Positions 22,278 through 62,303 of a stretch of 64,000 nt of DNA are shown piece by piece. Numbering within the stretch: the first letter of the stretch is position 1; each line of letters opens with the position of its first letter. Source of the stretch: an uncultured Bacteroidales bacterium (GTDB lineage Bacteria > Bacteroidota > Bacteroidia > Bacteroidales > WCHB1-69). The stretch lies in the NCBI GenBank assembly GCA_905233745.1, contig CAJODA010000003.1, positions 19,576-83,575 on the forward strand, given 5' to 3'. Below the pieces are notes generated by a model. It saw only the letters and a program-made list of their open reading frames with translations. It made no database searches and was not told the origin of the DNA. Made by a program: the position numbers and the translations under genes.

Positions 22278-22310
22278 GCTTTTTTTATATTGATTTTTAA
22301 TAATATACGT

Positions 22311-24371
22311 ATGAAAAAATGGTTTTCATTGACATTGTCAATGGTAATATTGTTTTTTGTTTTTACCAGTTCCCAACCTATGACCACTAAATCCAAACCC
22401 AAGAAGGTCAAATCAGGAGTTACGCTGACCAATCTTGACAAATCTGTGAAACCGACAGAAGATTTCTACCAGTATGCCTGCGGCGGCTGGATGAAACTCA
22501 ACCCTCTGGGACCTGAGTATGCCCGCTTTGGCAGCTTTGACGTGCTCGGGGAGAATAACCAGAAGCAACTCAAGGATTTGGTTTTGAAACTTTCCGCTCA
22601 AAAGAATGCAGCCGGCACACTTGAGCAGAAAGTGGGCGATCTCTATAAAATCGGCATGGATACCGTTACGTTGCAAAATCAAGGCGCGCAGCCTATCCAG
22701 ACTGAACTTGGCGCTATCGCATCTTTGCGTCGCGCGCAGCTTTCCCGGAAATTGGCTGACATGTCCCTTGAAGGGCTCCATCCTTTCTTTGCCCTGTTTG
22801 GCTCTTCCGATCCCGACAACAGTGATATGACCATCGCCTATCTCTGGCAGACAGGCCTCGGCATCGGCGATCGTGACTATTATTTGGAAAAAGACCAGCA
22901 GAACATCCGTGATGAGTATGTGAAGCTCATGGCCAAGATGTTTAAGATGGCCGGTTATAGCAAAATGGCCGGCTTTGAGGGCAATGAGACTGAACTTGCA
23001 AAGCGAGTCCTCTCGCTGGAAACCATGATGGCCAGCGCTTTCGTGGATAAGACCACGCTCCGTGATCCCTATCAGACCATACATAAATGCACTCCGGCTG
23101 ATTTCCAGAAGATGATTCCTGCTATTGACGTGAAAGTCTATCTGAATACATTGAAATTGGACAATGTTGATACGGTCAATGTGGGCCAACCTACCTATTT
23201 CGCCAGTTTGAACCACATTCTTTCAGTGGCTGATATGGAGGTGATCCGCGCATACCTGGCCTGGAACGTCATCAATGCCGCCGCCTCCTATCTGAGCGAC
23301 GACTTTGTAAACGCCGACTTTGACTTCTACGGCAAGGTGCTCTCCGGCAAGCAGGAGAACCGCCCCCGCTGGAAACGAGTGATTGGCACAGTGGACGGCT
23401 GTCTCGGCGAAGCCCTCGGCCAGATGTATGTTAAGGCCTACTTCCCCGCCGAAGCAAAGGTCCGTATGGAACAGTTGGTCAAGAACCTCCAATGGGCTCT
23501 TGGCGAACGTATCAAGGCTTCTACCTGGATGACTGAGGTTACCAAGAAGAATGCTCTGGAAAAACTGGCCGCTTTCAGAGTTAAAATTGGCTATCCGGAT
23601 AAATGGAGAGACTATAGTGCGCTACAAATCCAGAACGACAGCTATTATGCCAATGTGGTGCGTGCTCGCCGCTTTGAAAGCGCCTACAGATTGTCGAAAA
23701 TCGGTAAACCCGTCGATAAGGACGAGTGGCAGATGACTCCGCAAACGGTCAACGCTTATTATGATCCCAGTACCAATGAGATCTGTTTCCCCGCAGGCAT
23801 TCTTCAACCGCCTTTCTTCGACATGAATGCGGATGATGCCGCCAATTACGGTGCCATCGGCGTGGTGATCGGCCATGAGATGACCCATGGCTTTGACGAC
23901 CAAGGCAGAAACTATGACCTTAAAGGTAACCTCACCGACTGGTGGACCGAACAGGATGCCGCCACCTTCAAAGAGAGATCCCAGCTCATTGTGGATCATT
24001 TCAATGCAATTGAAGTCGCGCCTGGCGTTTTTGGCAACGGTTCCTTCACCCTGGGAGAGAATATTGCGGACAACGGTGGCTTGAACGTTTCCTACAGTGC
24101 TTTCCAGAAAGCCAAATCTGAAGGTACTATCAAGGGTGACATGGACGGCTACACACCCGAGCAGCGCTTCTTCCTGGCTTATGCCGCCGTTTGGGCTGCC
24201 AACATCCGCCAAGAGGAAATTCTCCGTCGTACAAAAGAAGACCCGCACTCTCTGGGCCGCTGGCGCGTGAACGGCACCCTGCCGCACATCGACGCCTTCA
24301 ACAATGCCTTCAATATCCAACCCTCCGATCCCATGTATCTCGCTCCTGAGAAACGTGCCAGAATTTGGTAG
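22311..24371 (+). CDS. pepO: M13-family zinc metallopeptidase (PepO / endothelin-converting-enzyme-like)
   Basis: Signal peptide MKKWFSLTLSMVILFF, HExxH zinc motif VIGHEMTHGFD, downstream ENIADNGG. The start is placed at the ATG at 22311. Confidence 0.9.
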   Translation: MKKWFSLTLSMVILFFVFTSSQPMTTKSKPKKVKSGVTLTNLDKSVKPTEDFYQYACGGWMKLNPLGPEYARFGSFDVLGENNQKQLKDLVLKLSAQKNAAGTLEQKVGDLYKIGMDTVTLQNQGAQPIQTELGAIASLRRAQLSRKLADMSLEGLHPFFALFGSSDPDNSDMTIAYLWQTGLGIGDRDYYLEKDQQNIRDEYVKLMAKMFKMAGYSKMAGFEGNETELAKRVLSLETMMASAFVDKTTLRDPYQTIHKCTPADFQKMIPAIDVKVYLNTLKLDNVDTVNVGQPTYFASLNHILSVADMEVIRAYLAWNVINAAASYLSDDFVNADFDFYGKVLSGKQENRPRWKRVIGTVDGCLGEALGQMYVKAYFPAEAKVRMEQLVKNLQWALGERIKASTWMTEVTKKNALEKLAAFRVKIGYPDKWRDYSALQIQNDSYYANVVRARRFESAYRLSKIGKPVDKDEWQMTPQTVNAYYDPSTNEICFPAGILQPPFFDMNADDAANYGAIGVVIGHEMTHGFDDQGRNYDLKGNLTDWWTEQDAATFKERSQLIVDHFNAIEVAPGVFGNGSFTLGENIADNGGLNVSYSAFQKAKSEGTIKGDMDGYTPEQRFFLAYAAVWAANIRQEEILRRTKEDPHSLGRWRVNGTLPHIDAFNNAFNIQPSDPMYLAPEKRARIW

Positions 24372-24379
24372 GACATGAT

Positions 24380-24445
24380 GAACGATTATCGATTATCGTT
24401 TATCGATTTAACTTTACAAACCTTACAAACTTTTATAAACTTTTT
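24380..24445. repeat. ladder repeat spacer upstream of arcC (gaacgatta tcgatta tcgttta tcgattta / actttacaa accttacaa acttttataa actttttatg)
   Basis: Two successive series of 7-10-nt units that change stepwise. It shares the words gaacgattatcgat and cgtttatcgat with the spacer on the other side of arcC. Confidence 0.75.
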
Positions 24446-25393
24446 ATGACAGACAGCAAACTCGCCGTTATTGCCTTTGGCGGCAACGCTTTACTTAAAA
24501 GCCATCAAAAAGGCACCTATCAAGAACAGATTGAGAATGTGACCGAGACATGCAGATGTTTGGTTCCGATGTTGAAATCCGGCTATCGGATGGTAATAGG
24601 CCATGGCAATGGCCCGCAAGTGGGCAATGTCATGCTACAGCATAAGGCTGGCAAAGAGACCTTCGAAGTGGAGTCCATGCCGCTGAATTTCTGTGTCGCT
24701 GAAACCCAAGGCTCTATTGGTGCATTGATTGAAGAGGGTTTCCGTCGTGTTTTTGCCGAAGAGAAGTGGGACCGTGATACCGTAACATTGCTTACACATG
24801 TGGAGGTGGACGGCGATGACCCCATGTTCCAGAACCCGACCAAACCTGTGGGCCCGTATGTTTCCAAGGAGGAGGCCGAACAGTATCATGATGAGACTGG
24901 CGACATCTATCGCGAGGATCCCAAGGGAAACGGATGGCGTAAGGTTGTGGCTTCCCCGAAGCCCATCCGCATCCAGAACGTGAAGTTGGTCCGCAAACTG
25001 GCCGATGAAGGTATTATTGTGATCACGGTCGGTGGCGGCGGCATCCCCGTAGCTATGCAGGATGGTTACCTTAGGGGCGTGCAGGCTGTGATTGACAAGG
25101 ACCTTGCCTCTGCCATCACCGCTGTGGAAATCAATGCCGACGAGTTCTACATTCTCACTGATGTGCCAAAAGTCTATATCAACTTCCGCAAGCCCGACGA
25201 GAAAGCACTGGATGTGGTTACCATTGGTGAAGCCAAGAAATATCTGGCAGAAGGCCAGTTTACAGAAGGCTCGATGGCACCGAAGGTGCGCGCCGCTATC
25301 ATGTTTGTGGAGAAGACCGGCCACCCCTGCATCATTACAGAAGCCGGCCGCCTGGGCGACGACTCCTGCGGAACACGCATCGTAAACGATTAG
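24446..25393 (+). CDS. arcC: carbamate kinase
   Basis: MTDSKLAVIAFGGNALL..., GHGNGPQVG and the C-terminal GSMAPKV are carbamate kinase hallmarks. Confidence 0.9.
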   Translation: MTDSKLAVIAFGGNALLKSHQKGTYQEQIENVTETCRCLVPMLKSGYRMVIGHGNGPQVGNVMLQHKAGKETFEVESMPLNFCVAETQGSIGALIEEGFRRVFAEEKWDRDTVTLLTHVEVDGDDPMFQNPTKPVGPYVSKEEAEQYHDETGDIYREDPKGNGWRKVVASPKPIRIQNVKLVRKLADEGIIVITVGGGGIPVAMQDGYLRGVQAVIDKDLASAITAVEINADEFYILTDVPKVYINFRKPDEKALDVVTIGEAKKYLAEGQFTEGSMAPKVRAAIMFVEKTGHPCIITEAGRLGDDSCGTRIVND

Positions 25394-25466
25394 CGTTGAA
25401 CGATTATCGATGAGCGATGACGTTTATCGATAATCGATAATCTTTAATCGATAATCTTTTAATCAC
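25387..25466. repeat. ladder repeat spacer between arcC and argF (tcgataa tcgataa tctttaa tcgataa tcttttaa)
   Basis: Contains gaacgattatcgat (25398-25411) and cgtttatcgat (25421-25431). Both are also present at 24380-24393 and 24397-24407. Confidence 0.75.
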
Positions 25467-25494
25467 ATATATTAACAACTTTAACCCCAAAATT

Positions 25495-26496
25495 ATGGCT
25501 TTCAATTTAAGAAACAGACATTTCCTCAAATTGTTGGATTTCACCCCTACGGAGATTCAATACATGTTGGACCTTGCACGTGACCTCAAACGCGCCAAGT
25601 ATGCCGGCACAGAGCAACCTCGCCTCAAAGGCAAGAACATTGCTTTGATTTTCGAAAAGACATCCACCCGTACACGCTGCGCTTTCGAAGTGGCGGCTTA
25701 CGACCAGGGTGCACACGTCACCTATCTGGGACCGACCGGTTCACAAATCGGCATCAAGGAGTCCATGGCTGATACCGCTCGCGTGCTCGGACGTATGTTC
25801 GACGGCATCGAGTATCGTGGCTTCAAACAAGCCACCGTTGAAGAACTGGCCAAGTTCGCCGGTGTGCCCGTATGGAACGGCCTTACCAACGAGTTCCACC
25901 CGACTCAGGTGCTCGCTGACTTCCTCACGATGAGCGAGCATGTGGACAAACCGCTGAACAAGGTGACCTATGCTTACCTCGGAGACGCCCGCTACAACAT
26001 GGGTAACTCTTTGATGGTGGGTGGTGCCAAGATGGGCATGGATGTCCGCATCGTCGCTCCCAAGGCTCTGCAACCCAGCAAGGAACTCATCGCAGAATGC
26101 AAGAAAATCGCCAAAGAAACCGGCGCTACGGTTACCGTTACCGACGACGTGAAGAAGGGCGTTAAAGGCTGCGATTTCCTCTATACTGACGTGTGGGTCT
26201 CCATGGGCGAGCCCGTCGAGGTTTGGGAAGAGCGTATCAAGATGCTCAAACCTTATCAGGTGAACAAGGAAACGATGAAACTTACGGGCAATCCGAAATG
26301 CAAATTCATGCACTGTCTGCCCGCATACCACAATCTTGAGACTCAGGTCGGTCGCGATGTGAACAAACAGTTCGGTTTGGATGGCATCGAGGTTACGGAG
26401 GATGTTTTCGAATCCGAAAACTCCATCGTTTTCGACGAAGCAGAAAACCGCATGCACACCATCAAGGCTGTCATGGTGGCTACCTTGGGTGACTAA
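25495..26496 (+). CDS. argF: ornithine carbamoyltransferase
   Basis: 333 aa. STRTRCAFE carbamoyl-phosphate motif, HPTQ, HCLPA. Adjacent to carbamate kinase, so it could be the catabolic (ArcB-type) enzyme. Confidence 0.9.
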
Positions 26497-26523
26497 TTCT
26501 GATCAAGACAAGATGCTTTCATT

Positions 26524-31862: not shown

Positions 31863-31950
31863 TGGCATCGAATTTGGCGGCAAAGATACATAATTTTGGG
31901 ACATGGGGGTGAAGTGGTAAAACGGAATATGGTGAAGGGATGAGGTTGTA

Positions 31951-31972
31951 GAGACGCAAAATTTTGCGTCTC
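31951..31972. repeat. perfect 22-bp palindrome gagacgcaaaattttgcgtctc (AGACGCAA...TTGCGTCT hairpin family)
   Basis: Read directly from the sequence. It lies in the divergent region between lpxD and tRNA-Ser. Confidence 0.8.
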
Positions 31973-32058: not shown

Positions 32059-32148
32059 GGAGAGGTGGGTGAGTGGCTGAAACCAACAGTTTGCTAAACT
32101 GTCGATGGGGAAACCTATCCGCGAGTTCGAATCTCGCCCTCTCCGCCA
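32059..32148 (+). tRNA. tRNA-Ser (anticodon GCT)
   Basis: Acceptor stem ggagagg / cctctcc. Anticodon loop tt-gct-aa within cagtttgctaaactg. Long variable arm (gtcgatggggaaacctatccgc). T-arm gcgagttcgaatctcgc. Encoded CCA end. Confidence 0.9.
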
Positions 32149-32153
32149 CTTAC

Positions 32154-32184
32154 AGAGACGCAATGCAATGCGTCTCTTTTTTTT
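32154..32184 (+). terminator. rho-independent terminator after tRNA-Ser (same hairpin family)
   Basis: Stem agagacgca / tgcgtctct, 6-nt loop, then 7 T. Confidence 0.65.
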
Positions 32185-32240
32185 GTGCCCGGCCAGCACT
32201 CAATGAGACGAATCTCTCCCGCGATGCGCTCCTACAACAT

Positions 32241-32340
32241 CCGTGTGTCGCGCGCCGCGATCCCGCGCGCATGTCCGCCCATTCCCCAGGGTGGCGGCAC
32301 CCGTGCCGTGTGCCTTGCCCCGGGCGGGTGGTGCGTCGGA
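32241..32340. repeat. GC-rich element, internally deleted relic copy
   Basis: It matches the left module of the full copies (gtgtgtcgcgcgccgcga.cccgcgcgcat...ggtggcggcacccgtgccgtgtgcctt). It then joins directly to a right-module piece (gggcgggtggtgcgt), skipping about 270 bp. Confidence 0.7.
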
Positions 32341-32413
32341 AAATGTTGTAAAAAAACACGTGGATTAAAACATGGTGAGATGATTTTTTTGTGGATAATA
32401 TCTTGAAAAATTA

Positions 32414-32421
32414 TATATTTG
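32414..32421 (+). promoter_or_regulatory. -7 promoter box TATATTTG
   Basis: TAnnTTTG match 35 nt upstream of the ATG at 32456. Confidence 0.45.
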
Positions 32422-32455
32422 CAAATCAAAACAATTCCAATAAATTTATCACATT

Positions 32456-32944
32456 ATGAAAAAAATATCCATTATTGTTTTTGGCCTGCTGCTCATTCAA
32501 GGCGTATGTGCGCAGCAGTTTGTCGTTCCCGAAATTCCCGGTGATATTGAGAAATCCGAATACACCAATTACACCCAGGATGCCATGAATTGCATAGATT
32601 GGCTGATGTCCAATTCGCCGACTGCCGAGCAGCGCAAAGATGTGGCTTCGTATGCGCTCTGGTGGATTGTCGGCACACCAGATGTACACATGAAACTCAA
32701 TACCAATGTCATAAAATTTGAAGATGAAAATCTGCTGTTGATTTTTCTTTCAGGCTGGGCACAATATGCCATTCGCAACCAGGATGACGATTCGGTGAAT
32801 GGTTGTTATGCAGGTGTAGAGGCGGCAATCAGTTATTACGAGCAATATAAGAAGGAGCTCTCAAAAGACAAGGGCGTGGAGAACTTCATCAAGATGAAGA
32901 ACAAAGGGACACTGAAAAGCTATATTGCGAAGTCGATGCAATAG
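32456..32944 (+). CDS. hypothetical secreted protein
   Basis: 162 aa with signal peptide MKKISIIVFGLLLIQGVCAQQ. AT-rich relative to the flanking GC-rich repeats. No motif recognised. Confidence 0.6.
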   Translation: MKKISIIVFGLLLIQGVCAQQFVVPEIPGDIEKSEYTNYTQDAMNCIDWLMSNSPTAEQRKDVASYALWWIVGTPDVHMKLNTNVIKFEDENLLLIFLSGWAQYAIRNQDDDSVNGCYAGVEAAISYYEQYKKELSKDKGVENFIKMKNKGTLKSYIAKSMQ

Positions 32945-32950
32945 CTGTTT

Positions 32951-33169
32951 CACACCGCGAAAGCGGCGGAACCCCCATCGTTAACCAACGCACAGCCAGC
33001 GGCGGAACCCCCATGGTTAACCAACGCGCTGTCCACGGCGGACCCCAAGACCCCGTCAGGGGTCAAAGCTCGGTAGCCGGGGATGCAATCCCCGGGCGGG
33101 TGGTGCGTTGGGTAATGTCCGCGGCGCAGGTGTCGATTGCGATGAAACATGCAGCGTGCCGCCGCGAAA
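32951..33169. repeat. GC-rich MITE-like element, 5-prime-truncated copy
   Basis: Starts inside the 36-bp subrepeat module (units from 32963 and 32999) and ends with the right inverted repeat ccgccgcgaaa (33159-33169). Confidence 0.7.
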
Positions 33170-33198
33170 CGCAATGTCGTGCGATGTTGCAATATGGT

Positions 33199-33268
33199 GT
33201 TTTTTATACCAGCTGGATACGACTTAACTCTTCGGAAAAGCGCCGGATACCATCTTGGATTCGTTGGA
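33199..33268 (-). pseudogene. duplicated 3-prime fragment of hicB
   Basis: Encodes ...QRIQDGIRRFSEELSRIQLV plus a stop, nearly identical to the C-terminus of the intact hicB at 33676-33740. There is no 5-prime part. Confidence 0.7.
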
Positions 33269-33271
33269 TTG

Positions 33272-33641
33272 ATTTCGCGGCGGGTTTGTTCCGTGCCCTG
33301 GTGCACGTGTGTCGCGCGCCGCGACCCCGCGCGCATCTCCGCCCATTCCCCGGGGTGGCGGCACCCGTGCCGTGTGCCTTACCCCGGGCTACCGAGCCCG
33401 GCAGACCTACGGCCTGCACCATTCCGCCGCCGGAGGCGGCGGAACCCCCAAGTAAACCCACTGGCTGTCCACAGCGGAACCCCCATCGTTAACCACCGCA
33501 CTGTCATTGGAGGAATCCATGACCCCGTCAGGGGTCAAAGCTTGGTAGCCGGGGATGCAATCCCCGGTAGGGTGGTGCGTTGGGTGATGATCGCGGCGCA
33601 GGTGTCGATTGCGATGAAACATGCAGCGTGCCGCCGCGAAA
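33272..33641. repeat. GC-rich MITE-like element, full copy (about 370 bp)
   Basis: Bounded by the inverted repeats atttcgcggcgg (33272-33283) and ccgccgcgaaa (33631-33641). Internal hairpins include ttccgccgcc-gga-ggcggcggaa, gacccc-gtca-ggggtc and ccgggga-tgcaa-tccccgg. Confidence 0.75.
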
Positions 33642-33675
33642 CGCAATGTCGTGCGATGTTGCAATATGGTGTTTT

Positions 33676-34065
33676 TTATACCAACTGGATATGACTTAAT
33701 TCTTCGGAAAAGCGCCGGATGCCATCCTGGATTCGTTGGACAGTTTTATGAGATGGACGGCTTTGTCCTGTGGCATAATGACTGAGTTGATGGCGGTTGA
33801 TGCCCGTGATGGTCTGCAGATCGGCAAGGTTCAAGCGGCCGCTTATATGCTGTAAAAAACTGGCGGTGTCAAATCTGTACTCAAATGACATTTCTGGCAG
33901 GGAAGGCATATACTCGCGAGCCTCTTTGTATGAATTCTCCAAATCCGACATGGTTTCGGCTACAGTGCACCCCATGCCAATGAATCCTATTTTATGTTTG
34001 TGTTGCGGAACAGCGGTATAACTGCCGTCATTGTTCCGTTCAATTATTACAGTGATTATTTCCAT
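33676..34065 (-). CDS. hicB: HicB-family antitoxin with a C-terminal XRE-type HTH
   Basis: 129 aa. N-terminal MEIITVIIERNNDGSYTA (HicB/UPF0150-like fold). C-terminal LQTITGINRHQLSHYATGQSRP resembles an HTH. Located 8 nt downstream of hicA. Confidence 0.75.
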   Translation of the reverse strand: MEIITVIIERNNDGSYTAVPQHKHKIGFIGMGCTVAETMSDLENSYKEAREYMPSLPEMSFEYRFDTASFLQHISGRLNLADLQTITGINRHQLSHYATGQSRPSHKTVQRIQDGIRRFSEELSHIQLV

Positions 34066-34073
34066 ACTACTAA

Positions 34074-34265
34074 TTATTTCAAATCAATACCAGATTGCAT
34101 CTTCACATACTTGAGCAATTCTTTGCCGACATCGGCAGTGGAATGTCGTGGAATCTGAAAACGTTGTTGAGTGACAGGACTCCACCACCATTCATGATTT
34201 TTCCCTTCACCAACATGACAGCAACCAAATGCCTTCAGTTTCTTTTTTAATTCATTAATCTTCAT
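34074..34265 (-). CDS. hicA: HicA-family mRNA interferase toxin
   Basis: MKINELKKKLKAFGCCHVGEGKNHEWWWSP...IPRH....GKELLKYVKMQSGI matches the HicA/YcfA pattern. The start is set to the ATG at 34265. Confidence 0.75.
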   Translation of the reverse strand: MKINELKKKLKAFGCCHVGEGKNHEWWWSPVTQQRFQIPRHSTADVGKELLKYVKMQSGIDLK

Positions 34266-34288
34266 GGTCAATTTTGGTTTCAAGTGTG

Positions 34289-34296
34289 CAAAGATA
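34289..34296 (-). promoter_or_regulatory. -7 promoter box TATCTTTG for hicAB
   Basis: The reverse complement of caaagata is TATCTTTG, 24 nt upstream of the hicA ATG. Confidence 0.45.
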
Positions 34297-34368
34297 CACA
34301 TTTATATATTATGTTCAATATACAAATGAATATTTTTTTAATTTATTCCGCCATTCGCCGGCATCTGT

Positions 34369-34739
34369 ATTTCGCGGCGGGTCCGTTCCGTGCCCTGGCG
34401 CATGTGTGTCGCGCGCCGCGACCCCGCGCGCATGCACGCCCACACCCGGGGTGGCGGCACCCGTGCCGTGTGCCTTGCCCTGGGCTACCGAGCCCGGCAG
34501 ACCTACGGCCTGCACCATTCCGCCGCCGGAGGCGGCGGAACCTCCAAGGTTAACCAATATGCTGACCGCGGCGGACCCCCCACCGTTAACCAATGCACAG
34601 CCTGCGGCGGAACCCAAGACCCCGTCAGGGGTCAAAGCTTGGTAGCCGGGGATGCAATCCCCGGTAGGGTGGTGCGTTGGGTAATGTCCGCGGCGCAAGT
34701 GTCGATTGCGATGGAATACGCAACGTGCCGCCGCGAAAT
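34369..34739. repeat. GC-rich MITE-like element, full copy (371 bp)
   Basis: Perfect 12-bp terminal inverted repeats atttcgcggcgg (34369-34380) and ccgccgcgaaat (34728-34739). Colinear with the copy at 33272-33641. Confidence 0.75.
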
Positions 34740-34761
34740 GCAATGGCGTGATTTAAGATTT

Positions 34762-34851
34762 TTAATTGTTCCCGACAGGGGGAATTCCCAGTTGTTTGCA
34801 GATTTTCTTCGCCAGAATGTCATCTATGTCGTTGTGGAGTGGGATGACAGC
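34762..34851 (-). pseudogene. HicA/YcfA-like toxin remnant (C-terminal about 29 codons only)
   Basis: This frame reads ...AVIPLHNDIDDILAKKICKQLGIPPVGNN plus a stop, a typical HicA C-terminus. Upstream the frame is closed by stops, so the N-terminal half is missing. Confidence 0.45.
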
Positions 34852-34999
34852 ATTCAATAACAAGCTCGATGGCCTCTTTCATATTATCCATGAGCTCATC
34901 TAAAGTGTTTCCCTGGCTTAAAGCTTCGGGCCGTTGGGAGCATTGTCCGATGTAAACGCCTGTTTCAGGATTCTTTTCGATAATGATACTATATTCCAT
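34820..34999 (-). CDS. short HicB/UPF0150-like antitoxin (59 aa; below the ORF-track length cutoff)
   Basis: MEYSIIIEKNPETGVYIGQCSQRPEALSQGNTLDELMDNMKEAIELVIE... matches the small HicB family pattern. The tail (CCHPTPQRHR) looks aberrant and overlaps the toxin remnant in another frame. Confidence 0.5.
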   Translation of the reverse strand: MEYSIIIEKNPETGVYIGQCSQRPEALSQGNTLDELMDNMKEAIELVIECCHPTPQRHR

Positions 35000-35192: not shown

Positions 35193-37142
35193 ATGGGAAA
35201 AATCATTGGAATTGACTTAGGAACTACAAACTCTTGCGTCTCCGTCATGGAAGGCAACGAGCCGGTTGTGATACCGAACAGCGAAGGCAGAAGAACCACC
35301 CCCTCTATCGTGGCTTTCGTCGGTAATAATGAACGTAAGGTCGGTGACCCTGCCAAACGTCAGGCCATCACCAACCCCAACAAGACCATCTTCTCCATCA
35401 AGCGTTTCATGGGCGAGACCTACGACCGCGTGGTGAAAGAGGTGGAGCGCGTGCCCTATACGGTGGAACGCACCGCTAACAACATGCCGAAAGTGAAGAT
35501 TGACGACCGCTCCTACACCGCTCAGGAAATCTCCGCCATGATTCTTCAAAAGATGAAGAAGACAGCTGAAGACTACCTCGGACAGGAAGTCACGGAAGCC
35601 GTCATCACCGTGCCGGCTTACTTCAGCGACTCACAGCGCCAGGCCACCAAAGAGGCTGGCGAGATTGCAGGCCTTACGGTGAAACGTATCATCAACGAAC
35701 CTACCGCAGCTGCTCTGGCATACGGTCTGGACAAGAAGAAATCCGACTCCAAAGTGGCCGTGTTCGACCTCGGTGGCGGTACCTTCGATATCTCTATCCT
35801 GGAACTCGGCGACGGCGTGTTCGAGGTGAAATCCACCAACGGTGACACCCACCTCGGCGGCGACGACTTCGACCACAAGATCATCGACTGGCTGGCCAAC
35901 GAGTTCATGAAGGATTACAATGTGGACTTGCGCAAGGATGCCATGGCATTGCAGCGTTTGAAAGAGGCTGCCGAGAAGGCCAAGATAGAACTCTCCAGCT
36001 CCAACTCCACGGAAATCAACCTGCCGTACATCATGCCGATCGACGGTGTGCCGCAACACTTGGTGCGCACGTTGACCCGTGCCCAGTTCGAGCAACTGTG
36101 CGACGACCTGATTCGCGCCACCATCGAGCCCTGCAAGAAAGCGTTGTCTGACGCTGGCTACACCACCTCCGACATTGACGAGGTGATCCTCGTGGGCGGT
36201 TCCACCCGTATCCCTGCTATTCAGGAAATCGTGGAGAAATTCTTCGGCAAGACCCCGTCCAAGGGCGTGAATCCTGACGAAGTGGTGGCTATCGGTGCCG
36301 CTATCCAAGGCGGTGTGCTCACCGGCGAGGTGAAAGACATCCTCCTGCTGGATGTGACTCCGCTGTCACTCGGTCTGGAAACCCTCGGCGGTGTGATGAC
36401 CAAGCTCATCGAGAGCAACACCACCATCCCGACCAAGAAGACGGAAACGTTCACCACGGCTGTTGATAACCAGACCTCTGTGGAGATTCACGTGCTCCAG
36501 GGCGAGCGTCCGATGGCTGCACAGAACAAGAGCATCGGTCGTTTCCACCTCGATGGCATTCCTGCCGCAATGCGTGGCGTGCCGCAAATCGAAGTCACCT
36601 TCGACATCGACACCAACGGTATCTTGAGCGTGACTGCCAAGGACAAGGCTTCCGGCAAGGAGCAGAAGATCCGTATCGAAGCCTCTTCCGGCTTGAGCGA
36701 TGATGAAATCAAGCGCATGAAGGCCGAGGCTGAAGCCAACGCCGATGCCGACCGCAAGGCCAAGGAGGAAATCGACAAGTTGAACGCAGCTGATTCACTG
36801 GTGTTCACCACGGAGAAACAGCTGAAAGAATTCGGCGACAAGGTTCCTGCTGACGACCGTGCCAAGATTGAGGCTGCTGCCGCCAAACTGAAAACCGCGC
36901 ACGACAACAAGGACTTCGCTGGCATCGACGCTGCCACGGCTGAGTTGCAGGGCGCATGGCAGGCCGCTTCCGCCAAGATGTACCAACAGGGCGGCGGTGC
37001 CAATCCGCAAGACCCGTTCGGAGCCAATGGTCCGTTCAACGGAGCCAACCCGGGCGCCGGCGCACAGGGCCCTCAGGGTGGAAACCCTAACAACGGTAAC
37101 GACGGAGAGGTCCAGGATGTGGACTTTGAGGAGGTGAAATAA
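35193..37142 (+). CDS. dnaK: molecular chaperone DnaK (Hsp70)
   Basis: 649 aa containing [17 protein letters not shown] and [10 protein letters not shown]. Confidence 0.97.
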
Positions 37143-51392: not shown

Positions 51393-51447
51393 AATTAGAG
51401 ATGCCTGAAATCTTATTTTCGCGAAAATAGGTTTCGTGATTTATTCG

Positions 51448-51455
51448 TATTTTTG
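51448..51455 (+). promoter_or_regulatory. -7 promoter box TATTTTTG upstream of the WYL regulator
   Basis: TAnnTTTG match 22 nt upstream of the ATG at 51477. Confidence 0.45.
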
Positions 51456-51476
51456 CGGCTGAAAAATCGAAACATT

Positions 51477-52535
51477 ATGCCCGCAAACAAAAACGCTGTC
51501 ACACGCTACTACATTCTCGACAAGTTGTTGGCCAACCGTTACCACAACTATTCGACTGAGGATTTGTGCCGGTTGGTCAACGAGGAGTTGGAGGAAAGGG
51601 AACAGCATGTAAGCCGTCGAACCATTGAACTTGACCTTCATTATTTGGAATACGAAAGCCCTTTTGTCGCTGAAATAGAGCATTATCAGATTGATGATGT
51701 AAGTCCACGAACTCTCAAGACGATCAAGAAAAGTTGCCATCGTTATGCGGATCCATCGTTCTCCATCTTCACGCAGAAGCTTACGGATGACGAGAAACAT
51801 CTGCTTGGCGAAGCCTTCACCCTCCTTGGGCAATTTGACGGTCTGCCGAATCTTGAGGGTTTGGAAAGGCTCAGGGAAAGTCTCAAAGTGAAGACCGACC
51901 GCCAGATTGTGTCGTTCACTAAGAATCCTTTGGAAGGAAAGAGTTTGCTGGGCGAGTTGTTCACTGCCATCACGCAGAAACAGGTGGTGGAGTTGCATTT
52001 CCACAAGTTCGACACGCCAGATACAGACCGTGTGGTGGTCGTTTATCCCTACTTGCTCAAGGAGTACAACCGTCGCTGGTACCTCATCGCTGCTGCCGAA
52101 GATACGGGCAAGCTGCTCAGCTTCGCCCTCGACCGCCTGGACAAGTTCGTCCCGTTGCCCGCACGTCATTATAAGGAATACGATGGCGACCTCAACGAAT
52201 GTTTCGAGGACATCATCGGAGTGACGCTTATCGAAGGCAATCCATTGCAGACCATCCTCTTCTGGGTCAGCGACAATTCCAAAGATTATGTTGCCACAAA
52301 ACCCTTGCACGAGTCCCAGCGGCATTATAAAGGAGAGAAGGAAAAGGAATTGCGCCAACAATACCCGAAGCTTGACGGTGGCGCGTTCTTCTCCATTGAG
52401 TGCATCGAGAACTACGAACTGATCCGGGAATTATCGTCTTTCGGCAAAGAGTTGTTGGTTCTTTCACCCACTGACATTCAGCAGAAAGTGCGCGACCGTC
52501 TGACCGCCCAACTTCAAGCGTATCAGGCATTGTGA
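51477..52535 (+). CDS. WYL-domain transcriptional regulator (N-terminal wHTH; BrxR/CapW-like architecture)
   Basis: N-terminal MPANKNAVTRYYILDKLLANRYHNYSTEDL...VSRRTIELDLHYLE (wHTH). Central NRRWYLIAAAEDTGKLLSFALDRL contains the WYL motif. A C-terminal extension follows. Confidence 0.8.
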   Translation: MPANKNAVTRYYILDKLLANRYHNYSTEDLCRLVNEELEEREQHVSRRTIELDLHYLEYESPFVAEIEHYQIDDVSPRTLKTIKKSCHRYADPSFSIFTQKLTDDEKHLLGEAFTLLGQFDGLPNLEGLERLRESLKVKTDRQIVSFTKNPLEGKSLLGELFTAITQKQVVELHFHKFDTPDTDRVVVVYPYLLKEYNRRWYLIAAAEDTGKLLSFALDRLDKFVPLPARHYKEYDGDLNECFEDIIGVTLIEGNPLQTILFWVSDNSKDYVATKPLHESQRHYKGEKEKELRQQYPKLDGGAFFSIECIENYELIRELSSFGKELLVLSPTDIQQKVRDRLTAQLQAYQAL

Positions 52536-52710
52536 TTTTTTGTATTTTTGCATCTCGCTAATCCTATAGAAAGATGATTGATAAGATATTTCAATGATAA
52601 CCATCCTGGTGTTTCAGCGATAACCACTACTTGAGTATATGGTAGCCCATGGTGAGAAAATTGGCACAGAGGAAAGAAAATGAGCGAAAATAGATTGCGC
52701 GGCACCGTTG

Positions 52711-52718
52711 TATTTTTG
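52711..52718 (+). promoter_or_regulatory. -7 promoter box TATTTTTG upstream of the ATPase gene (a second box lies at 52543-52550)
   Basis: TAnnTTTG match 28 nt upstream of the ATG at 52746. Another exact TATTTTTG sits at 52543-52550, just after the WYL gene stop. Confidence 0.45.
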
Positions 52719-52745
52719 CAAACGAAAAAACAAACAGAGAAGAAT

Positions 52746-54362
52746 ATGGAAAATAACAAAAACATGAACCCGGTTTTCAGTCTGAAAAACTTCCGCTCTT
52801 TTGGCGAAGAAGGTGCCGATTTTGAACTCGCCCCTATCACCATTTTGACCGGATGCAATAGTGCCGGCAAGAGTTCTATGGCAAAAGCACTTGTGCTATT
52901 AAGCCGAATGCCTAATCACAGAAGAGTCGTATCGCCCTCATTAAAACTCTACACAAAAGACCTCAGACTTGGTAACTATGAGAAGGTGCTTCATAAAAAC
53001 GCGGCTGACAATGAGATAGTATTTGCATATAAAGTATGGTCTAACTATCTTCAAGAAGATGTTCGTGTCAAGCGTTTTTTCAAGTCTAAGAAGAACGACG
53101 ATCTTAATGATGGTTTTTTGTACAAGTACACCATAGAAAAAACTGATGGAACAATAATCTTTGAAGAAAACACAACCCTTTGGGGAATGGAACATGAAGA
53201 ACAAAACAATAAACACACAGATTCTATTACTCAAAATTTCAATGCTTTCTCTTTGGTAAGTAAATACCATCAATTAGTTCAAGAAATTGATTTACTAAAA
53301 AAAAGAGATAACGAAGAGTCTCAAAACGAATATGCTCATTATTCCCAAGAGTTAAAAAGCATCATGTCACAAATACAAGTAAGCGAAATCAATGTTGAAA
53401 TGTATAATATCAGACAGCTATCAGACTGGCATGACTGGATATTCAGCAGAGACCAAAGAATAAAGAACAAGAGACGTTACTGCAAGACTGATGAAGAGTT
53501 TAAGGAACTTTTGGCGGCACAATACCCAGAAAGACAAATAATAGAACATTTTTTGGAATTGGTTGCAGATGAAGTGTTTTCTCCCAAGTTCATTGAAAAT
53601 GTGGAATATATTGATTCGGGTTCAGCAGCAATCAGACGCACTTATTCTGTTGAGGACAGCAATAAAATGAGCAAGGCTTTGTTTGATTTTAATAGTGCGA
53701 AAATAATCGATGAAGAGTGGTCCGATATTTTTCATCCATATTATCATAAACCAGGCAGTTTTGTGAACCATTGGCTGGAAGAATTCCTTGGCAATGGTTG
53801 TAAAATTTTTACAACAGGCGATGATGAAGGACGCATTAAAGTGTTTATTGAAAGAAATGGTGAAAAACAATTGCTTGCAGACGAAGGGTATGGTATCACC
53901 CAACTCGTTTCTTTGCTTTTGTTAATAGACAATTCTATTAAGCCAACCGACGAGAAAAATCCTCAAACACCATGGCATGACGGCAAACCAGATCATAAAA
54001 ATCTCTATTTTGAAAGACATCCTCAAGTAATTTGTGTTGAGGAACCCGAAGTTCATCTCCATCCGAAATACCAATCATTGTTGGCAGATATGTTTGTGGA
54101 AGCATACCAGAAATACAACATCCACTTCATTATTGAAACTCACAGCGAATATCTTATTCGCAAACTTCAAGTTATGGTTGCAGATAAGGAAAATGCTATT
54201 GTGCCAAATGATATTTCTTTAAATTATGCGGAAAAAAATGAAATTACCGGAATGTCTTCCAATCGAAAGATAGAAATATGCGCAGACGGTTATCTTGATG
54301 ATACATTTGGCGAAGGATTCTTTGATGAAGCAACGAAGTGGTCTAAAAAGCTTATTTTATAA
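52746..54362 (+). CDS. ABC/SMC-head-like AAA ATPase (AAA_15/AAA_21, DUF3696-type)
   Basis: N-terminal FSLKNFRSFGEEG..ITILTGCNSAGKSS (Walker A at 52851-52874). C-terminal VICVEEPEVHLHP (Walker B / D-loop) and FIIETHSEYLIRKL (H-loop). The start at 52746 (MENNKNM) is preferred because of the promoter box; the ORF track start is 52680. Confidence 0.8.
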   Translation: MENNKNMNPVFSLKNFRSFGEEGADFELAPITILTGCNSAGKSSMAKALVLLSRMPNHRRVVSPSLKLYTKDLRLGNYEKVLHKNAADNEIVFAYKVWSNYLQEDVRVKRFFKSKKNDDLNDGFLYKYTIEKTDGTIIFEENTTLWGMEHEEQNNKHTDSITQNFNAFSLVSKYHQLVQEIDLLKKRDNEESQNEYAHYSQELKSIMSQIQVSEINVEMYNIRQLSDWHDWIFSRDQRIKNKRRYCKTDEEFKELLAAQYPERQIIEHFLELVADEVFSPKFIENVEYIDSGSAAIRRTYSVEDSNKMSKALFDFNSAKIIDEEWSDIFHPYYHKPGSFVNHWLEEFLGNGCKIFTTGDDEGRIKVFIERNGEKQLLADEGYGITQLVSLLLLIDNSIKPTDEKNPQTPWHDGKPDHKNLYFERHPQVICVEEPEVHLHPKYQSLLADMFVEAYQKYNIHFIIETHSEYLIRKLQVMVADKENAIVPNDISLNYAEKNEITGMSSNRKIEICADGYLDDTFGEGFFDEATKWSKKLIL

Positions 54363-54366
54363 AGAG

Positions 54367-55455
54367 ATGAAATATAGGAAAAACATATATTGTGAAAAAG
54401 AATTCATCAGAATGTGCATTGAAAAATTGGAGGCATCAGATACATTTTGCAATCCCGATGAATGGCTGTTAATAAATAGAATAAAAGATATTATAAGTGA
54501 TACATACACAAAGCTATATCTCAACATGTCAAACGATGAGATAAACGAATTTTCGAAAGACATATACAAGCGTAAGGTAAAAGCAGCAAAGAAAGATGAA
54601 TGTGCAGATTTATCTTCTTTCGAACGGTTTATGTATGCTCTATTCATGAAGCAACAAAACGGAGAACTTCAAATAAAACATTTCGATGATGTTGATTTTG
54701 ATAACGAGGATGAAATTGATTTAAATGGCTACTATTTTACATGTAAAGATCGCGAGCAATGCGAAAAGGCTATGGGTGGATATGGCGTTCTGGCAATAAA
54801 CATGGAAAACATTAAAGATTTTGGCTTTGTTTTAAAAGACAATGGGAAAGCTATTCGTGATAATTCAAAAAACACTTGGAAATCATTATTGGAGTCCGTT
54901 GGTAAATTGCCCTATAACTCAATAATAATCATTGACAACTATATACTAAATGATACAGATGAAATGGTTGAAAATTTGCAAGGTATTTTTGATTCATTGC
55001 TTCCGTCCAGTATCAGTGTGCCAATCCAGATAACAATATTCTCAAAAATCAGAACAGATAAAAGCACCGATCTACCTGTTGAGCCTAGATTGGAAAAAAT
55101 AAAAGAATTGTTACAAAAGTATAATTCATTTTCTTTTGAAGTGACCATCGTTAAGTGTCAAAATTTTCATGACCGAGCAATATTGACAAATTCCATGTTC
55201 TTTGGGTGTCCTGGAGGATTTAACCTGTTTAAGCAAGGAAAATCTCAAAAAACAACCTATTTTAATGCGGCAAATCCCTTTCTGGGGAGTGAGAGTATTA
55301 AATGGACGACTGGGGCATACTCAAATTTCGTTGCAGATGCAGCTGATGTTTTCCAATCCCTAAAGGAATATGGGAGTGAAGGAATAGACGATTCTTTTCC
55401 TCAGTTCTACAACGGGGAAAAAAAGAATAGGATTCTTGATGGTTTTAAAGGTTAA
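54367..55455 (+). CDS. uncharacterised partner of the ATPase; the C-terminal half may be a MIT_C/PLD-like domain
   Basis: 362 aa, starting 5 nt after the ATPase stop. Motifs SIIIIDNYIL ... FHDRAILTN ... GCPGGFNLF resemble, from memory, the DPY...HDRxI...GRGLDxF pattern of the PLD-like MIT_C domain. This assignment is speculative. Confidence 0.65.
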   Translation: MKYRKNIYCEKEFIRMCIEKLEASDTFCNPDEWLLINRIKDIISDTYTKLYLNMSNDEINEFSKDIYKRKVKAAKKDECADLSSFERFMYALFMKQQNGELQIKHFDDVDFDNEDEIDLNGYYFTCKDREQCEKAMGGYGVLAINMENIKDFGFVLKDNGKAIRDNSKNTWKSLLESVGKLPYNSIIIIDNYILNDTDEMVENLQGIFDSLLPSSISVPIQITIFSKIRTDKSTDLPVEPRLEKIKELLQKYNSFSFEVTIVKCQNFHDRAILTNSMFFGCPGGFNLFKQGKSQKTTYFNAANPFLGSESIKWTTGAYSNFVADAADVFQSLKEYGSEGIDDSFPQFYNGEKKNRILDGFKG

Positions 55456-55797
55456 GAGGCACTATTGTGTTCGGTCACATGGAGAAAAGCTTTTCAAATG
55501 TACATATAGGTGATTGGATTTGCTCCAGGCGCGGTTTTCAATACTCTTTAGAAACCAGTCAATAACGTTCCGGTATGAGCACAATCATGCGATTTGAAAT
55601 GAATTAATGATTTAGCTAATTGAAAATAATTGGAATACTGTGTTGTGTTTGAAAAGTTAAAAAACAAAAACTGACCAAATTATATAAATACCACGTAAAA
55701 TTACAGCATCATATTTTCAGATTTTGTTCAACTGACCTCGCATAATCTGGGGTCGTGACGCGAAAACGGTAAAAATTGAGGTTCTCATAATAATGTT

Positions 55798-55805
55798 TAT
55801 TTTTG
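55798..55805 (+). promoter_or_regulatory. -7 promoter box TATTTTTG upstream of the DUF1848 gene
   Basis: TAnnTTTG match 20 nt upstream of the ATG at 55825, after a 370-bp intergenic gap. Confidence 0.5.
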
Positions 55806-55824
55806 CAAAGTCAAAAACAAGACT

Positions 55825-56889
55825 ATGTCCCAGTGGAAAAAAATAAAGATTCAGCGTGATAAAGGCGAAATGGTGGAAGCACAGGCCCCTGTCATTGTCT
55901 CTGCAAGCCGGAGCACCGACATACCGGCATTCTATGCCGACTGGTTCTTCCATCGGTTGAAAGTGGGCTACTCTGCGTGGAAAAATCCCTTTAATGGGGT
56001 AAACAGTTACATTTCCTATCAAAACACCCGTTTCATTGTGTTTTGGTCGAAGAACGCGAAGCCGTTACTACAGCATCTTGATGAGCTGAAAGACAGAAAC
56101 ATTGGTTGCTACATTCAACATACGTTGAACGACTATGAGAAAGAAGGGTTGGAGAAAGGAGTGCCCCCGTTGGAGGAAAGAATTGACACGTTCAAACGAT
56201 TGGCGGACAAGCTAGGGAAAGGTCGGGTGATATGGCGTTTCGACCCACTGATTCTCACAAACCAAGTCAACATTGACGAACTGTTAGGGAAAATCGAACA
56301 CATTGGCGACCAACTATATGGCTATACGGAGAAGTTGGTGTTCAGCTATGCCGATATCGCTTCCTACAGGAAAGTGAAAGCCAATCTGGAGAAGAACCAC
56401 GTCAACTACCGAGAATGGGAACCTGATCAGATGGAAGATTTTGCGGTCCGGCTTTCAACACTCAACCAAAAGTGGAACTACAAATTGGCCACCTGCGGTG
56501 AGAAAATCGACATTGAAAAGTACGGCATCTTGCACAACAAGTGCGTGGATGACGACATAATCATTCGTTTCGCTTATAAAGACAAAACTTTGATGGAGTT
56601 TCTTGGTGTGGATGTGAAAACTGTCGAGAATTCCTTGTTTGGCACAGAACCTATTCCCGAAAATGCCATCATGCTCAACGCCACCCAATACGCCATCAAG
56701 CGAAAGAACAATAGCGACAAGGGTCAGCGTCAGTTCTGCGGCTGCATCGCAAGCAAGGACATTGGCGAATACAACACCTGTCCGCACCTTTGCGAGTATT
56801 GCTATGCGAATGCGAGCAAGGAGGTAGCGGTGAGTAATTGGGAAAGACACGAAACCAATAAACTGGGCGAAACAATAACTGGAAGGTAA
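55825..56889 (+). CDS. DUF1848-family protein with a C-terminal radical-SAM-like CX3CX2C cluster
   Basis: N-terminal VIVSASRSTDIPAFYADWFFHRL, VFWSKN and IWRFDPLI match my recollection of DUF1848. The C-terminus FCGCIASKDIGEYNTCPHLCEYCYAN contains CX3CX2C at 56779-56802. Confidence 0.8.
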   Translation: MSQWKKIKIQRDKGEMVEAQAPVIVSASRSTDIPAFYADWFFHRLKVGYSAWKNPFNGVNSYISYQNTRFIVFWSKNAKPLLQHLDELKDRNIGCYIQHTLNDYEKEGLEKGVPPLEERIDTFKRLADKLGKGRVIWRFDPLILTNQVNIDELLGKIEHIGDQLYGYTEKLVFSYADIASYRKVKANLEKNHVNYREWEPDQMEDFAVRLSTLNQKWNYKLATCGEKIDIEKYGILHNKCVDDDIIIRFAYKDKTLMEFLGVDVKTVENSLFGTEPIPENAIMLNATQYAIKRKNNSDKGQRQFCGCIASKDIGEYNTCPHLCEYCYANASKEVAVSNWERHETNKLGETITGR

Positions 56890-56925
56890 TTATGAGATCC
56901 TGAACAATAATTAAATTTGATTTAC

Positions 56926-59436: not shown

Positions 59437-59741
59437 GCAATTTTAGCGAACAGGAAAAGAGGACAATACTCCATCTCCTCACCATGATAATGGAGGCGGA
59501 TTCAGTAATCCATCCCAAGGAGGTGGAATACATCAAATCCGTAATGAAGAATTTTGGACTTTCATCTGCTGAATTTGATCATATGGATATGCTTGATTTT
59601 GCTGTCCTAAAAAAAGAATACAGTATGATGAATAAGGAAAAACAGGACTTTGCAAATGATATATTTTTGAATATGGCAAAAATTGACGGAAATATCCATT
59701 GTAACGAAAGGAATATTATTAATAGTCTACAACTAACATAG
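59433..59741 (+). CDS. small TerB-like protein
   Basis: 102 aa. The ATG overlaps the helicase stop (ATGA, 59433-59436). EKRTILHLLTMIMEADSVIHPKEVEYIKSVMKNFGLS resembles the TerB / DjlA-N helical repeat pattern (from memory). Confidence 0.55.
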   Translation: MSNFSEQEKRTILHLLTMIMEADSVIHPKEVEYIKSVMKNFGLSSAEFDHMDMLDFAVLKKEYSMMNKEKQDFANDIFLNMAKIDGNIHCNERNIINSLQLT

Positions 59742-59962
59742 AAGAACTGCTCAATGGGAAGGCGGTAGAGAACGATGTTGAGCTTATGAATAATCCGTCC
59801 CTGCTACTTTATAGGAACGACCATTCACTTACCTATCAAAATGGCAGATTTATTTAGTTTTTTATGAGAGTCTGTTGATTCATGTGTGAGAAATGCGGCA
59901 AACGGTACAAACAAATAATCAGATAAATTTGATTTAGAATTAATTATTCAAAAAAATAAAAT

Positions 59963-60568: not shown

Positions 60569-60574
60569 ATTACT

Positions 60575-60982: not shown

Positions 60983-61095
60983 ATAAGTTAGACTGCAAAA
61001 AAACGGCCAATATCCACCCCAAACGGGGATATCCGTTCACTTTCACCCCTTCCCTGCAAGCCTTGCAAACCCCTCCCTCAACCCCCGAAATATCG

Positions 61096-61103
61096 TATTT
61101 TTG
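61096..61103 (+). promoter_or_regulatory. -7 promoter box TATTTTTG
   Basis: TAnnTTTG match 37 nt upstream of the ATG at 61140. It is preceded by a C-rich ladder-like tract at 61037-61086. Confidence 0.45.
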
Positions 61104-61139
61104 CGCCGGTTAATAATTGCAAGTAAGAGTGCTCATATT

Positions 61140-62264: not shown

Positions 62265-62303
62265 TGACTCAGACTGTTTCGTGGAAATTTGTCTTTGAAC
62301 GAA

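Follow-up and report, generated by a model that had tools for sequence, protein, structure and literature searches.

What kind of sequence lies behind the variable patch between a tRNA-Ser gene and dnaK in an uncultured Bacteroidales bacterium, and by what means does this patch come to vary? The question arises from a 64,000-nt stretch of contig CAJODA010000003.1, which was analysed as a whole and is called the window here, and in which a preliminary description, made from the sequence alone, had noted four copies or relics of one GC-rich element, here named E, lying among toxin–antitoxin (TA) genes of the hicAB type. With the two full copies as BLASTN queries against the 64-kb window, four copies or relics in the same orientation were found between tRNA-Ser and dnaK, exactly at the places described, and no fifth place was detected. 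E is a real, previously undescribed repeat family. It is explained here, with moderate confidence, as a decaying foldback repeat similar to MITEs (miniature inverted-repeat transposable elements) or to BOX repeats, with direct copies that cause a native islet of TA and sigma factor genes to vary by recombination.

Read in gene orientation, which is the minus strand of the window, E comprises a leader, a 12-nt perfect inverted repeat (ATTTCGCGGCGG / CCGCCGCGAAAT), arms, one to three 36-nt units, a number of small perfect hairpins and a tail. The two full copies share 88.7% identity over 371 nt (E4, 34369-34739, vs E3, 33272-33641; BLASTN E = 5e-136), and the E2 match covers 207 nt at 86.5%. The 12-nt repeat is perfect in E4, the right arm of E3 terminates in AAAC, and the repeat is kept in every full copy and in a distant relative from the L024 group of loci. 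The preliminary description was right that these inverted repeats bound the full copies; its length of about 370 bp was too short, since conservation continues 18–25 nt further. The leader and tail form a degenerate inverted repeat that extends the 12-nt repeat by ~18–25 nt per side, so that the ends amount in total to a degenerate inverted repeat of ~35 nt whose inner 12 nt are perfect, and the termini read ACATCGCACG...TTTCGCGGCGG. Once leader and tail are counted, a complete E is ~405–430 nt (full copies measure 381–446 nt). The GC fractions of the copies are 0.77, 0.65, 0.67 and 0.68, whereas the spacers have 0.39–0.41 and the window as a whole has 0.49. The tandem subrepeats of about 36 bp that had been noticed by eye were recovered by Tandem Repeats Finder with a period of 36 and 2.3–2.4 copies (32962-33046 and 34532-34615); their number differs between copies (1, 2 or 3), and each unit carries the motifs GGTTAACC, an 8-bp palindrome present once per unit, and GCGGCGGAAC. 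Additionally, a GCGGCGG(A/G) motif occurs four times in direct and twice in inverted orientation in each E. The complementarity proposed between the two arms (GCTCGGTAGCC / GGCTACCGAGC) is real and long-range, and the profile of the 5' arm matches the 3' half too, on its opposite strand, as is characteristic of a foldback, although as inverted repeats the arms are only ~60–67% complementary. Truncated, internally deleted and inverted derivatives are numerous across loci.

Judged from its pattern of indels, E is non-coding: the copies are separated by 1-nt indels, and at one GGT-rich spot they differ in length by ~5, 8, 11 and 26 nt. A protein-coding E had been considered because of a long minus-strand open reading frame (ORF) over E4 and a unit length that is a multiple of three, and was rejected because the indel lengths are not divisible by three and E3 breaks the frames. 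Gene callers nevertheless put ORFs of 140–210 aa on both strands of E (34315-34743 on the minus strand, 34390-34860 on the plus strand, and equivalents at other loci), and such products, for instance of 156 and 142 aa, are present in public protein collections. They match no family and their frame breaks between copies, so they are regarded as annotation artefacts of GC-rich non-coding DNA. This has a practical side, given that spurious ORFs of 140–160 aa are called on both strands and that assemblers break or circularise contigs at E. The inability of the preliminary description to place the element in a known family was borne out: over the window, Rfam 15 gave only the tRNA at the gathering threshold and nothing overlapping E even at E <= 10, and no Rfam model overlapped the L024 relative, HEARO and related models failing too. 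In BLASTN searches, neither E nor the L024 relative matched any plasmid or phage; among viral contigs a 24-mer of E had 0 matches, and the pattern of termini plus spacing had two, both chance occurrences inside high-GC phage coding sequence.

The setting of E is best seen by comparing genomes that carry it with relatives that do not. On the minus strand the window reads decayed hicB-hicA, E4, hicA-hicB, E3, hicB 3' stub, E2, a 162-aa ORF that runs the other way, then E1 and finally tRNA-Ser, an order already given correctly before; the length of the hicB fragment is now added (Table 1). Further E-bearing contigs were found by exact look-up of window proteins and by searches with the spurious ORFs on E, and L005 and L006 were added by one scan each of genome and metagenome collections; carrier genomes were read as fragments of up to 64 kb, with E at one or two loci per fragment. 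The suspicion that the patch is variable between strains proved correct, as a conspecific contig lacks one unit (below) and relatives hold other cargo between E copies, namely an operon for an extracytoplasmic function (ECF) sigma factor, a 156-aa membrane protein, or an insertion sequence (IS) of the IS4 type with a lipoprotein gene. Anchoring to the tRNA gene did not survive this comparison. No tRNA lies beside the E copies of L002, L005 and L006, so the adjacency to tRNA-Ser is a rearrangement specific to the species of the window; in L006 and L007 the array sits between dnaK and a DUF819 gene without any tRNA.

The E-free relatives (L015, L016, L018–L022), reached through members of the HicB protein cluster, have the order dnaK - 186 bp - hicA - hicB - sigma operon - Fib_succ ... 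DUF819, and neither BLASTN nor nhmmer detected E in them, nor did the profile search find diverged copies. Their dnaK genes are 88–89% identical to that of the window, whereas all E-bearing genomes show at least 94%. Because these relatives keep hicAB and the sigma operon, both are native neighbours of dnaK and E was gained later in one sub-clade. When filled and empty dnaK sites were compared, the insert between dnaK and hicA was found to consist of the hicBA remnant, E4 and its tail, bounded by an A-rich direct repeat of 10–16 nt (AAAAAAATAT) that overlaps promoter-like A-tracts; this repeat flanks the TA remnant together with E, not E alone. The promoter region of hicA is likewise native, being present in the E-free relatives.

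How the patch varies could be mapped in one case. The conspecific contig L003 is shorter by one unit of 472 bp; in window positions, it is identical to the E2-side repeat up to ~33215 and to the E3/hicB-side repeat from ~33599. E2 with the hicB stub and E3 with hicB share a 300-nt repeat unit at a spacing of 472 bp, and since the crossover falls inside a stretch of ~90 bp that is identical in both repeats, the difference is a homologous unequal exchange. Other junctions can be understood in similar terms. The junction of hicB, 30 nt and E can be derived from that of the 311-aa gene, 30 nt and E by a deletion between two TAAA stop contexts, which would remove the sigma operon lying between them, and the junction of E with the hicB stub is common to the window, L002 and L006 and is thus old or ancestral. 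In L002 (1-4532) the first and last 55 nt are identical, from which a circular or tandem unit of 4,477 bp bounded by E follows. Unit junctions lie between the 3' end of E and mid-hicB, at microhomologies of the stop-codon TAAA, or inside E, with no one fixed position; tandem duplication via E copies followed by deletions accounts for the orders seen without a site-specific step.

E is not confined to this islet. At least five distinct E loci were found across genomes, and the check proposed at the outset, whether the element is restricted to one locus, gave further copies at L005 and L010 and a distant relative in L024, which speaks against purely local duplication. L005, a metagenome-assembled genome (MAG) of a Bacteroidales bacterium from buffalo reticulum, holds a 150-nt relic of the 5' arm in the divergent spacer of rpe and a peptidase gene, and L010 a scrambled copy after a NAGLU gene, with its central segment inverted. 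In L024–L032 a distant relative of ~345 nt and 47% GC was found at loci with an intact small hicBA pair. Its termini (CATTTCGCGGCGGC ... GCCGCTGCGAAATG) match those of E, its 29-nt spacing to the TGCGCCGCGAT block is that of E, and its hairpins occupy corresponding places with different sequence in a nearly complete rod-like fold. A 91-aa gene has its stop codon ~12 nt before the start of this relative, and a small HNH-domain gene follows downstream. The target preference for 3' ends of TA genes that had been put forward is not supported by these placements: E also follows the 311-aa lipoprotein-like gene, the NAGLU gene and the 91-aa gene and lies in the rpe/peptidase spacer, intact small hicB-hicA pairs at two other loci are not followed by E, and the hicB-E junction is derivable by deletion. 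A general link of E to the small hicB-hicA pair was rejected as well, no E-like element being present at the second locus with such a pair (A2M-hicBA-cysS).

The sequence of E also appears to be eroding. Between E4 and its orthologue L008b identity is 88.9% with 8 gap columns, compared with 97–98% in the flanking TA pseudogene, 95.8% in intergenic DNA and 94–95% in coding sequences. E diverges faster than the adjacent pseudogene and shifts to AT, the departures from its consensus being GC>AT in 101 cases vs AT>GC in 37, with per-site rates that imply a drift to ~43% GC.

Taken together with its architecture, this would make E a non-coding, non-autonomous foldback repeat of the MITE, BOX or BrickBuilt type that entered the ancestor of one rumen Bacteroidales clade, presumably as GC-rich foreign DNA and by transposition. 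It may have taken up two positions within an islet that is native and dispensable (dnaK - hicAB - ECF sigma operon - ... - DUF819), with one E arriving beside a second hicBA pair, which has since decayed. Nothing indicates that E transposes at present. As a side effect, its hairpins may act on upstream transcripts as a structure at their 3' end. Direct copies of more than 400 bp would provide homology for unequal crossing-over of the RecA type, which together with microhomology deletions could duplicate, delete and reshuffle the genes between copies and so produce a variable patch. If this explanation is true, it adds a family to the short list of modular foldback repeats in Bacteroidales, and a few repeat copies suffice to turn a conserved dnaK/hicAB/ECF sigma neighbourhood strain-variable by ordinary homologous recombination. 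E itself is new; its kind and its consequences are familiar.

Several observations weigh against the foldback-repeat explanation. E falls within the size of MITEs (< about 600 bp), is non-coding and has terminal inverted repeats, but the search for target-site duplications gave, as the longest repeats between 30-nt flanks, A-rich stretches of 5–7 nt that were reached by 134–1412 of 2000 shuffles and so do not exceed chance, a weak result as it is not certain where E truly ends. No autonomous element with ends like those of E came to light, and the one transposase nearby, the IS4 of L006, has unrelated ends. All E copies in a locus share one orientation, and at several junctions (hicA-remnant, hicB, 311-aa and 91-aa genes) E starts 10–30 nt past a stop codon. 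Copy number looks low, with one 21-mer match in 185,579 species genomes, one metagenome contig, and 14 clusters of ORFs called on E among 5.8 billion proteins. Finally, when L005, L010 and the L024 relative L024x are included, hairpin H-b has changed on both sides at 5/6 pairs with 95% of cells paired, a figure that rests on two sequences; in L005 CCGGGGAT/ATCCCCGG is replaced by CCAGGGGT/ACCCCTGG, and in L010 hairpin H-e shows a swap of G-C to C-G. These changes hint weakly, through two or three divergent sequences, at structural selection over longer time spans.

The last of these points lead to a structured RNA, which may be possible although unlikely: E would be a 3'-untranslated-region module co-transcribed with the upstream gene, which it protects or from which it is processed, or an independent non-coding RNA. 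Its fold is very stable (~-200 kcal/mol), and the folding check suggested at the outset showed both strands ~20 kcal/mol better than shuffled sequence (z = -3.5 and -3.2). The GC content of E is far above that of its host, distant members retain the hairpins although their sequence differs, folding of the L024 relative is more favourable in gene orientation (-142 vs -129 kcal/mol), and E begins 10–30 nt past stop codons at the junctions listed above. On the other hand, besides the absence of an Rfam family, RNAalifold on nine full copies found 0 compensatory pairs on one strand and 1 on the other, as many pairs being broken as kept, and the bias of G-T vs A-C mismatches favours opposite strands in E and L024x, leaving no consistent strand signal. 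An RNA under selection is also difficult to reconcile with an element that evolves faster than the neighbouring pseudogene and drifts AT-ward, with half-elements and scrambled copies that persist, and with a gene context that is not conserved, the L005 relic lying in a divergent promoter spacer. Should the termini and hairpins nevertheless reflect function, they would offer a lead to a so far undescribed RNA or recombination system in rumen and gut Bacteroidales.

It is improbable that E is the recombination site of a cassette system whose recombinase lies elsewhere and whose units of gene plus E move as circles, although the layout invites the comparison. The attC sites of integrons measure ~60–140 nt. 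In Bacteroidales, integron-like arrays named rAID-1 have been described that have a recombinase of the XerD family and intergenic sequences of a repetitive kind (Ross et al., bioRxiv 10.1101/471110). As in these systems, the small gene units of a strain-variable array are each followed, in one orientation, by a repeat able to form hairpins: E copies that point the same way are interspersed with small gene units that have promoters of their own and differ in content between genomes, the unit inserted beside dnaK is a TA pair plus E, the L002 scaffold closes on itself with its 55-nt overlap, and the conserved hairpins resemble single-strand recombination sites. However, E at ~400 nt is several times longer than attC and has no adjacent integrase or XerD. 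The statement that the patch holds no recombinase could be extended, since no tyrosine or serine recombinase or transposase was called in the window (1-64,000, from Pfam listings of a conspecific 107-kb contig) or, the IS4 of L006 apart, in the flanks of L006–L009 and L015–L017. Unit boundaries are not fixed but scattered (within hicB, at stop codons or within E), the one polymorphism that could be resolved is the homologous crossover described above, and the cargo includes native genes, as hicAB and the sigma operon of the E-free relatives show. The junction that closes L002 (hicB stub - E2) is also present in the chromosome of the window, so that a tandem duplication accounts for the closure of L002 just as well. 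The integron-type array once suggested for this patch is not borne out, and nothing found points to an integron-like cassette system.

A broader proposal, which at present is a long shot, would join E and the L024 relative in an order-wide class of foldback elements of ~350–430 nt with termini ATTTCGCGGCGGC...GCCGCYGCGAAAT, marking the 3' boundary of exchangeable units and serving as the single-stranded DNA or RNA substrate of a trans-encoded enzyme, with the 4,477-bp L002 as an excised unit. Very improbable is native regulatory or maintenance DNA with iterons, in which the motifs of the 36-nt units might be binding sites for HicB, for the ECF sigma factor or for a protein of partition or replication; the repeated GCGGCGG(A/G) motifs, the palindrome GGTTAACC in each unit and the presence of a DNA-binding antitoxin gene and the ECF sigma operon beside E in most genomes would fit it, but relatives keep hicAB and the sigma operon without E, unit number ranges from 1 to 3, E occurs at the L005 and L010 loci without either gene, its sequence is decaying, and no Rep or Par gene is present. 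A mere local segmental duplication with no history elsewhere is scarcely credible, for although several copies derive from one another (the 300-nt unit of E2/hicB stub and E3/hicB at its 472-bp spacing), the related copies at L005, L010 and L024 contradict it, E4 and E3 differ by 11%, and the flanks are not alike at the two primary sites (one in the dnaK-hicA spacer, the other downstream of the sigma operon). Two further candidates were discarded. A type III TA system with ToxI-like 36-nt repeats is opposed by the lack of a ToxN-type gene at the loci examined, by the position of the units inside a larger foldback and by their varying count of 1–3, and an invertible promoter by the single orientation that copies at each site share in all genomes.

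For the foldback-repeat explanation, the closest architectural analogues would be BrickBuilt and PgRS (MITEPgRS/464), two MITEs of Porphyromonas gingivalis, also in the Bacteroidales. They are composed of a leader, tandem units of 23 or 41 nt in varying number and a tail, with short terminal inverted repeats, and BrickBuilt exists in ~19 dispersed copies per genome with a candidate IS5 partner and IS5-like ends, GAGACCTTTGCA (Klein et al. 2015, Mob DNA, PMC4596501). Like E, BrickBuilt and PgRS are non-coding and always intergenic Bacteroidales elements of the leader-units-tail type, with many partial copies and a restricted host range. They share no sequence similarity with E (BrickBuilt ends GAGACCTTTGCA vs ...TTTCGCGGCGG), and whereas BrickBuilt is dispersed and has a candidate partner, E is apparently low-copy and clustered with no partner found and, unlike BrickBuilt, is a GC-rich foldback with long, partly complementary arms. 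The BOX repeats of Streptococcus pneumoniae consist of boxA-(boxB)n-boxC modules with a variable middle and complementary ends that form a long stem-loop; BOX, ERIC and Correia/NEMIS repeats lie just downstream of genes and can affect the stability of upstream mRNA, are 100–300 bp long and AT-neutral, and number tens to hundreds of copies per genome. E resembles them in its modular build, variable middle, complementary ends and placement just past genes, and differs in its ~400 bp, its 67% GC in a 49% GC genome, its one or two loci per genome fragment examined and the lack of any common sequence. Palindrome-associated elements derived from IS200/IS605, and the ends of omega-RNA/HEARO, make no target-site duplication and are hairpin-rich, orientation-consistent, GC-rich and ~300–400 nt long. 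E agrees with them in these traits, and the L024 relative lies upstream of an HNH-domain gene; unlike them, E has no TnpA, TnpB or IscB gene at the loci examined and fails the Rfam HEARO models. A HEARO/IscB-like identity was rejected, since the protein next to the L024 relative has a small HNH domain and a hydrophobic low-complexity tail and no RuvC domain.

At that site, L023 (4946-5725) and L024 (4985-6335) have common flanks (an 82/91-aa gene and TonB_C), between which some strains carry an acyl-ACP thioesterase gene and the alternative is the 290-aa HNH-domain gene with the distant E-like element; the swap begins in the last ~8 codons of the upstream small gene.

Table 1. Features of the variable patch (window coordinates) and gene orders of related E-bearing loci.
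Feature	Position	Strand or reading	Remarks
tRNA-Ser(GCU)	32059..32148	+	ARAGORN; Rfam tRNA 57.5 bits; borders the patch in the window's species only
Perfect-stem palindrome AGAGACGCAATGCAATGCGTCTCT followed by T-run	32154..32177	+	outside E; probably the tRNA terminator
E1, relic	32242..32346	-	large internal deletion; ~84 nt of 3' arm and ~22 nt of 5' arm kept; BLASTN 83 nt, 90-95%; nhmmer model 286-369; profile-search extent 32242-32325
162-aa ORF	32456..32944	+	N-terminal signal-like hydrophobic segment; no family match; cargo in this species only; opposite strand to other units
E2	32954..33203	-	leader, 5' arm, two 36-nt units; 3' half deleted; nhmmer model 1-249, E = 2e-74; TRF (Tandem Repeats Finder) period 36; profile-search extent 32954-33201
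hicB 3' stub	33204..33272	-	69 nt, last 23 codons + stop; joined directly to E3 3' end
E3, full	33247..33672	-	starts ~30 nt past hicB stop codon; nhmmer E = 1e-142; profile-search extent with leader and tail
129-aa gene in hicB position	33676..34065	-	9 nt downstream of hicA
hicA toxin gene	34074..34265	-	63 aa from ATG at 34265; PF07927 32.3 bits vs cutoff 27; PHROG_353 'toxin'
AT-rich hicA promoter region	34266..34344	-	presumed Bacteroidetes-type -7 motif (TATCTTTG); filled-vs-empty site comparison
E4, full with leader and tail	34339..34769	-	nhmmer E = 2e-145; inverted repeat; profile-search extent with leader and tail
Decayed second TA pair	34758..34999	-	hicB (73 aa intact) and hicA (65 aa intact) fused through ~180-nt internal deletion
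59-aa ORF in decayed pair	34820-34999	-	PF15919 20 bits, below cutoff 27
dnaK	35193..37142	+	conserved locus anchor in all related genomes
L008/L009		gene orientation	dnaK - hicBA remnant - E - hicAB - ECF sigma - 413 aa - 310 aa - E
L007		gene orientation	as L008/L009, first E and hicA partly deleted; array runs on into 257 aa - DUF819
L006		gene orientation	dnaK - E (truncated) - sigma operon - E - hicB stub - IS4 - lipoprotein - E - DUF819
L036		gene orientation	E - hicA remnant - hicB - 156-aa membrane protein - E - 257 aa
L002		gene orientation	E - hicAB - sigma operon - E - hicB stub

Among the genes of the patch, the 129-aa gene next to hicA is a candidate hicB partner by position. Its product has no Pfam, NCBIfam, PHROG or PDB match and its single-sequence AlphaFold2 model is of low confidence (predicted local distance difference test, pLDDT, 59.6), so that the assignment is positional only; the predicted secondary structure begins with two strands and one long helix and ends in four C-terminal helices, and in the E-free relatives this gene, next to dnaK, is conserved at 95%. 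In the promoter region of hicA, TATCTTTG is taken to be a -7 motif from the Bacteroidetes consensus TAnnTTTG. The decayed TA pair aligns with the intact pair of L023 in two BLASTN blocks that skip L023 350-531, mid-hicB being fused to the end of hicA. The 59-aa remnant has 65 homologues; those inspected are mostly of 73 aa. NCBI names the 73-aa homologues HicB, and their partner is a PF07927 HicA. The cluster of the 162-aa ORF product has 2 members only.

On both sides of tRNA-Ser (31950-31972 and 32154-32177) lie near-identical palindromes of 23–24 nt, AGAGACGCAA(nnnn)TTGCGTCTC(T), and a similar one is present past the peptidase gene of the unrelated MAG L005 (5998-6032). Their appearance is that of a terminator-type hairpin common to these sites or of a small repeat of the repetitive extragenic palindromic (REP) type, and the ends, GAGAC...GTCTC, are similar to inverted repeats of the IS5 type that are listed for the MITEs of P. 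gingivalis. Beyond the tRNA, a block of OTCase, amino-acid kinase and M13 peptidase genes occupies 22,290-26,500, ~9 kb from the E patch on its other side, whereas in relatives (L007:16263-20456, L008:7033-10628) it stands directly downstream of dnaK in the opposite relative orientation; being displaced and reoriented, it reveals a large rearrangement with one breakpoint at or near the distal relics E1/E2.

Two observations concern other parts of these contigs. At the uvrA site, L012 (700-3500) compared with L011 (774-3608) has a 122-aa fragment and ORFs of 257 and 86 aa in place of uvrA (944 aa in the species of the window), which suggests a disruption or an assembly problem in the related contig. 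The region at ~51,400-64,000 of the window, read on the conspecific contig L013, carries genes for a WYL protein, an AAA_15/AAA_21 ATPase (560 aa), DUF1848 and a UvrD-like helicase (804 aa), together with a faint TerB-like match and several ORFs without a family, and is a probable defence island.

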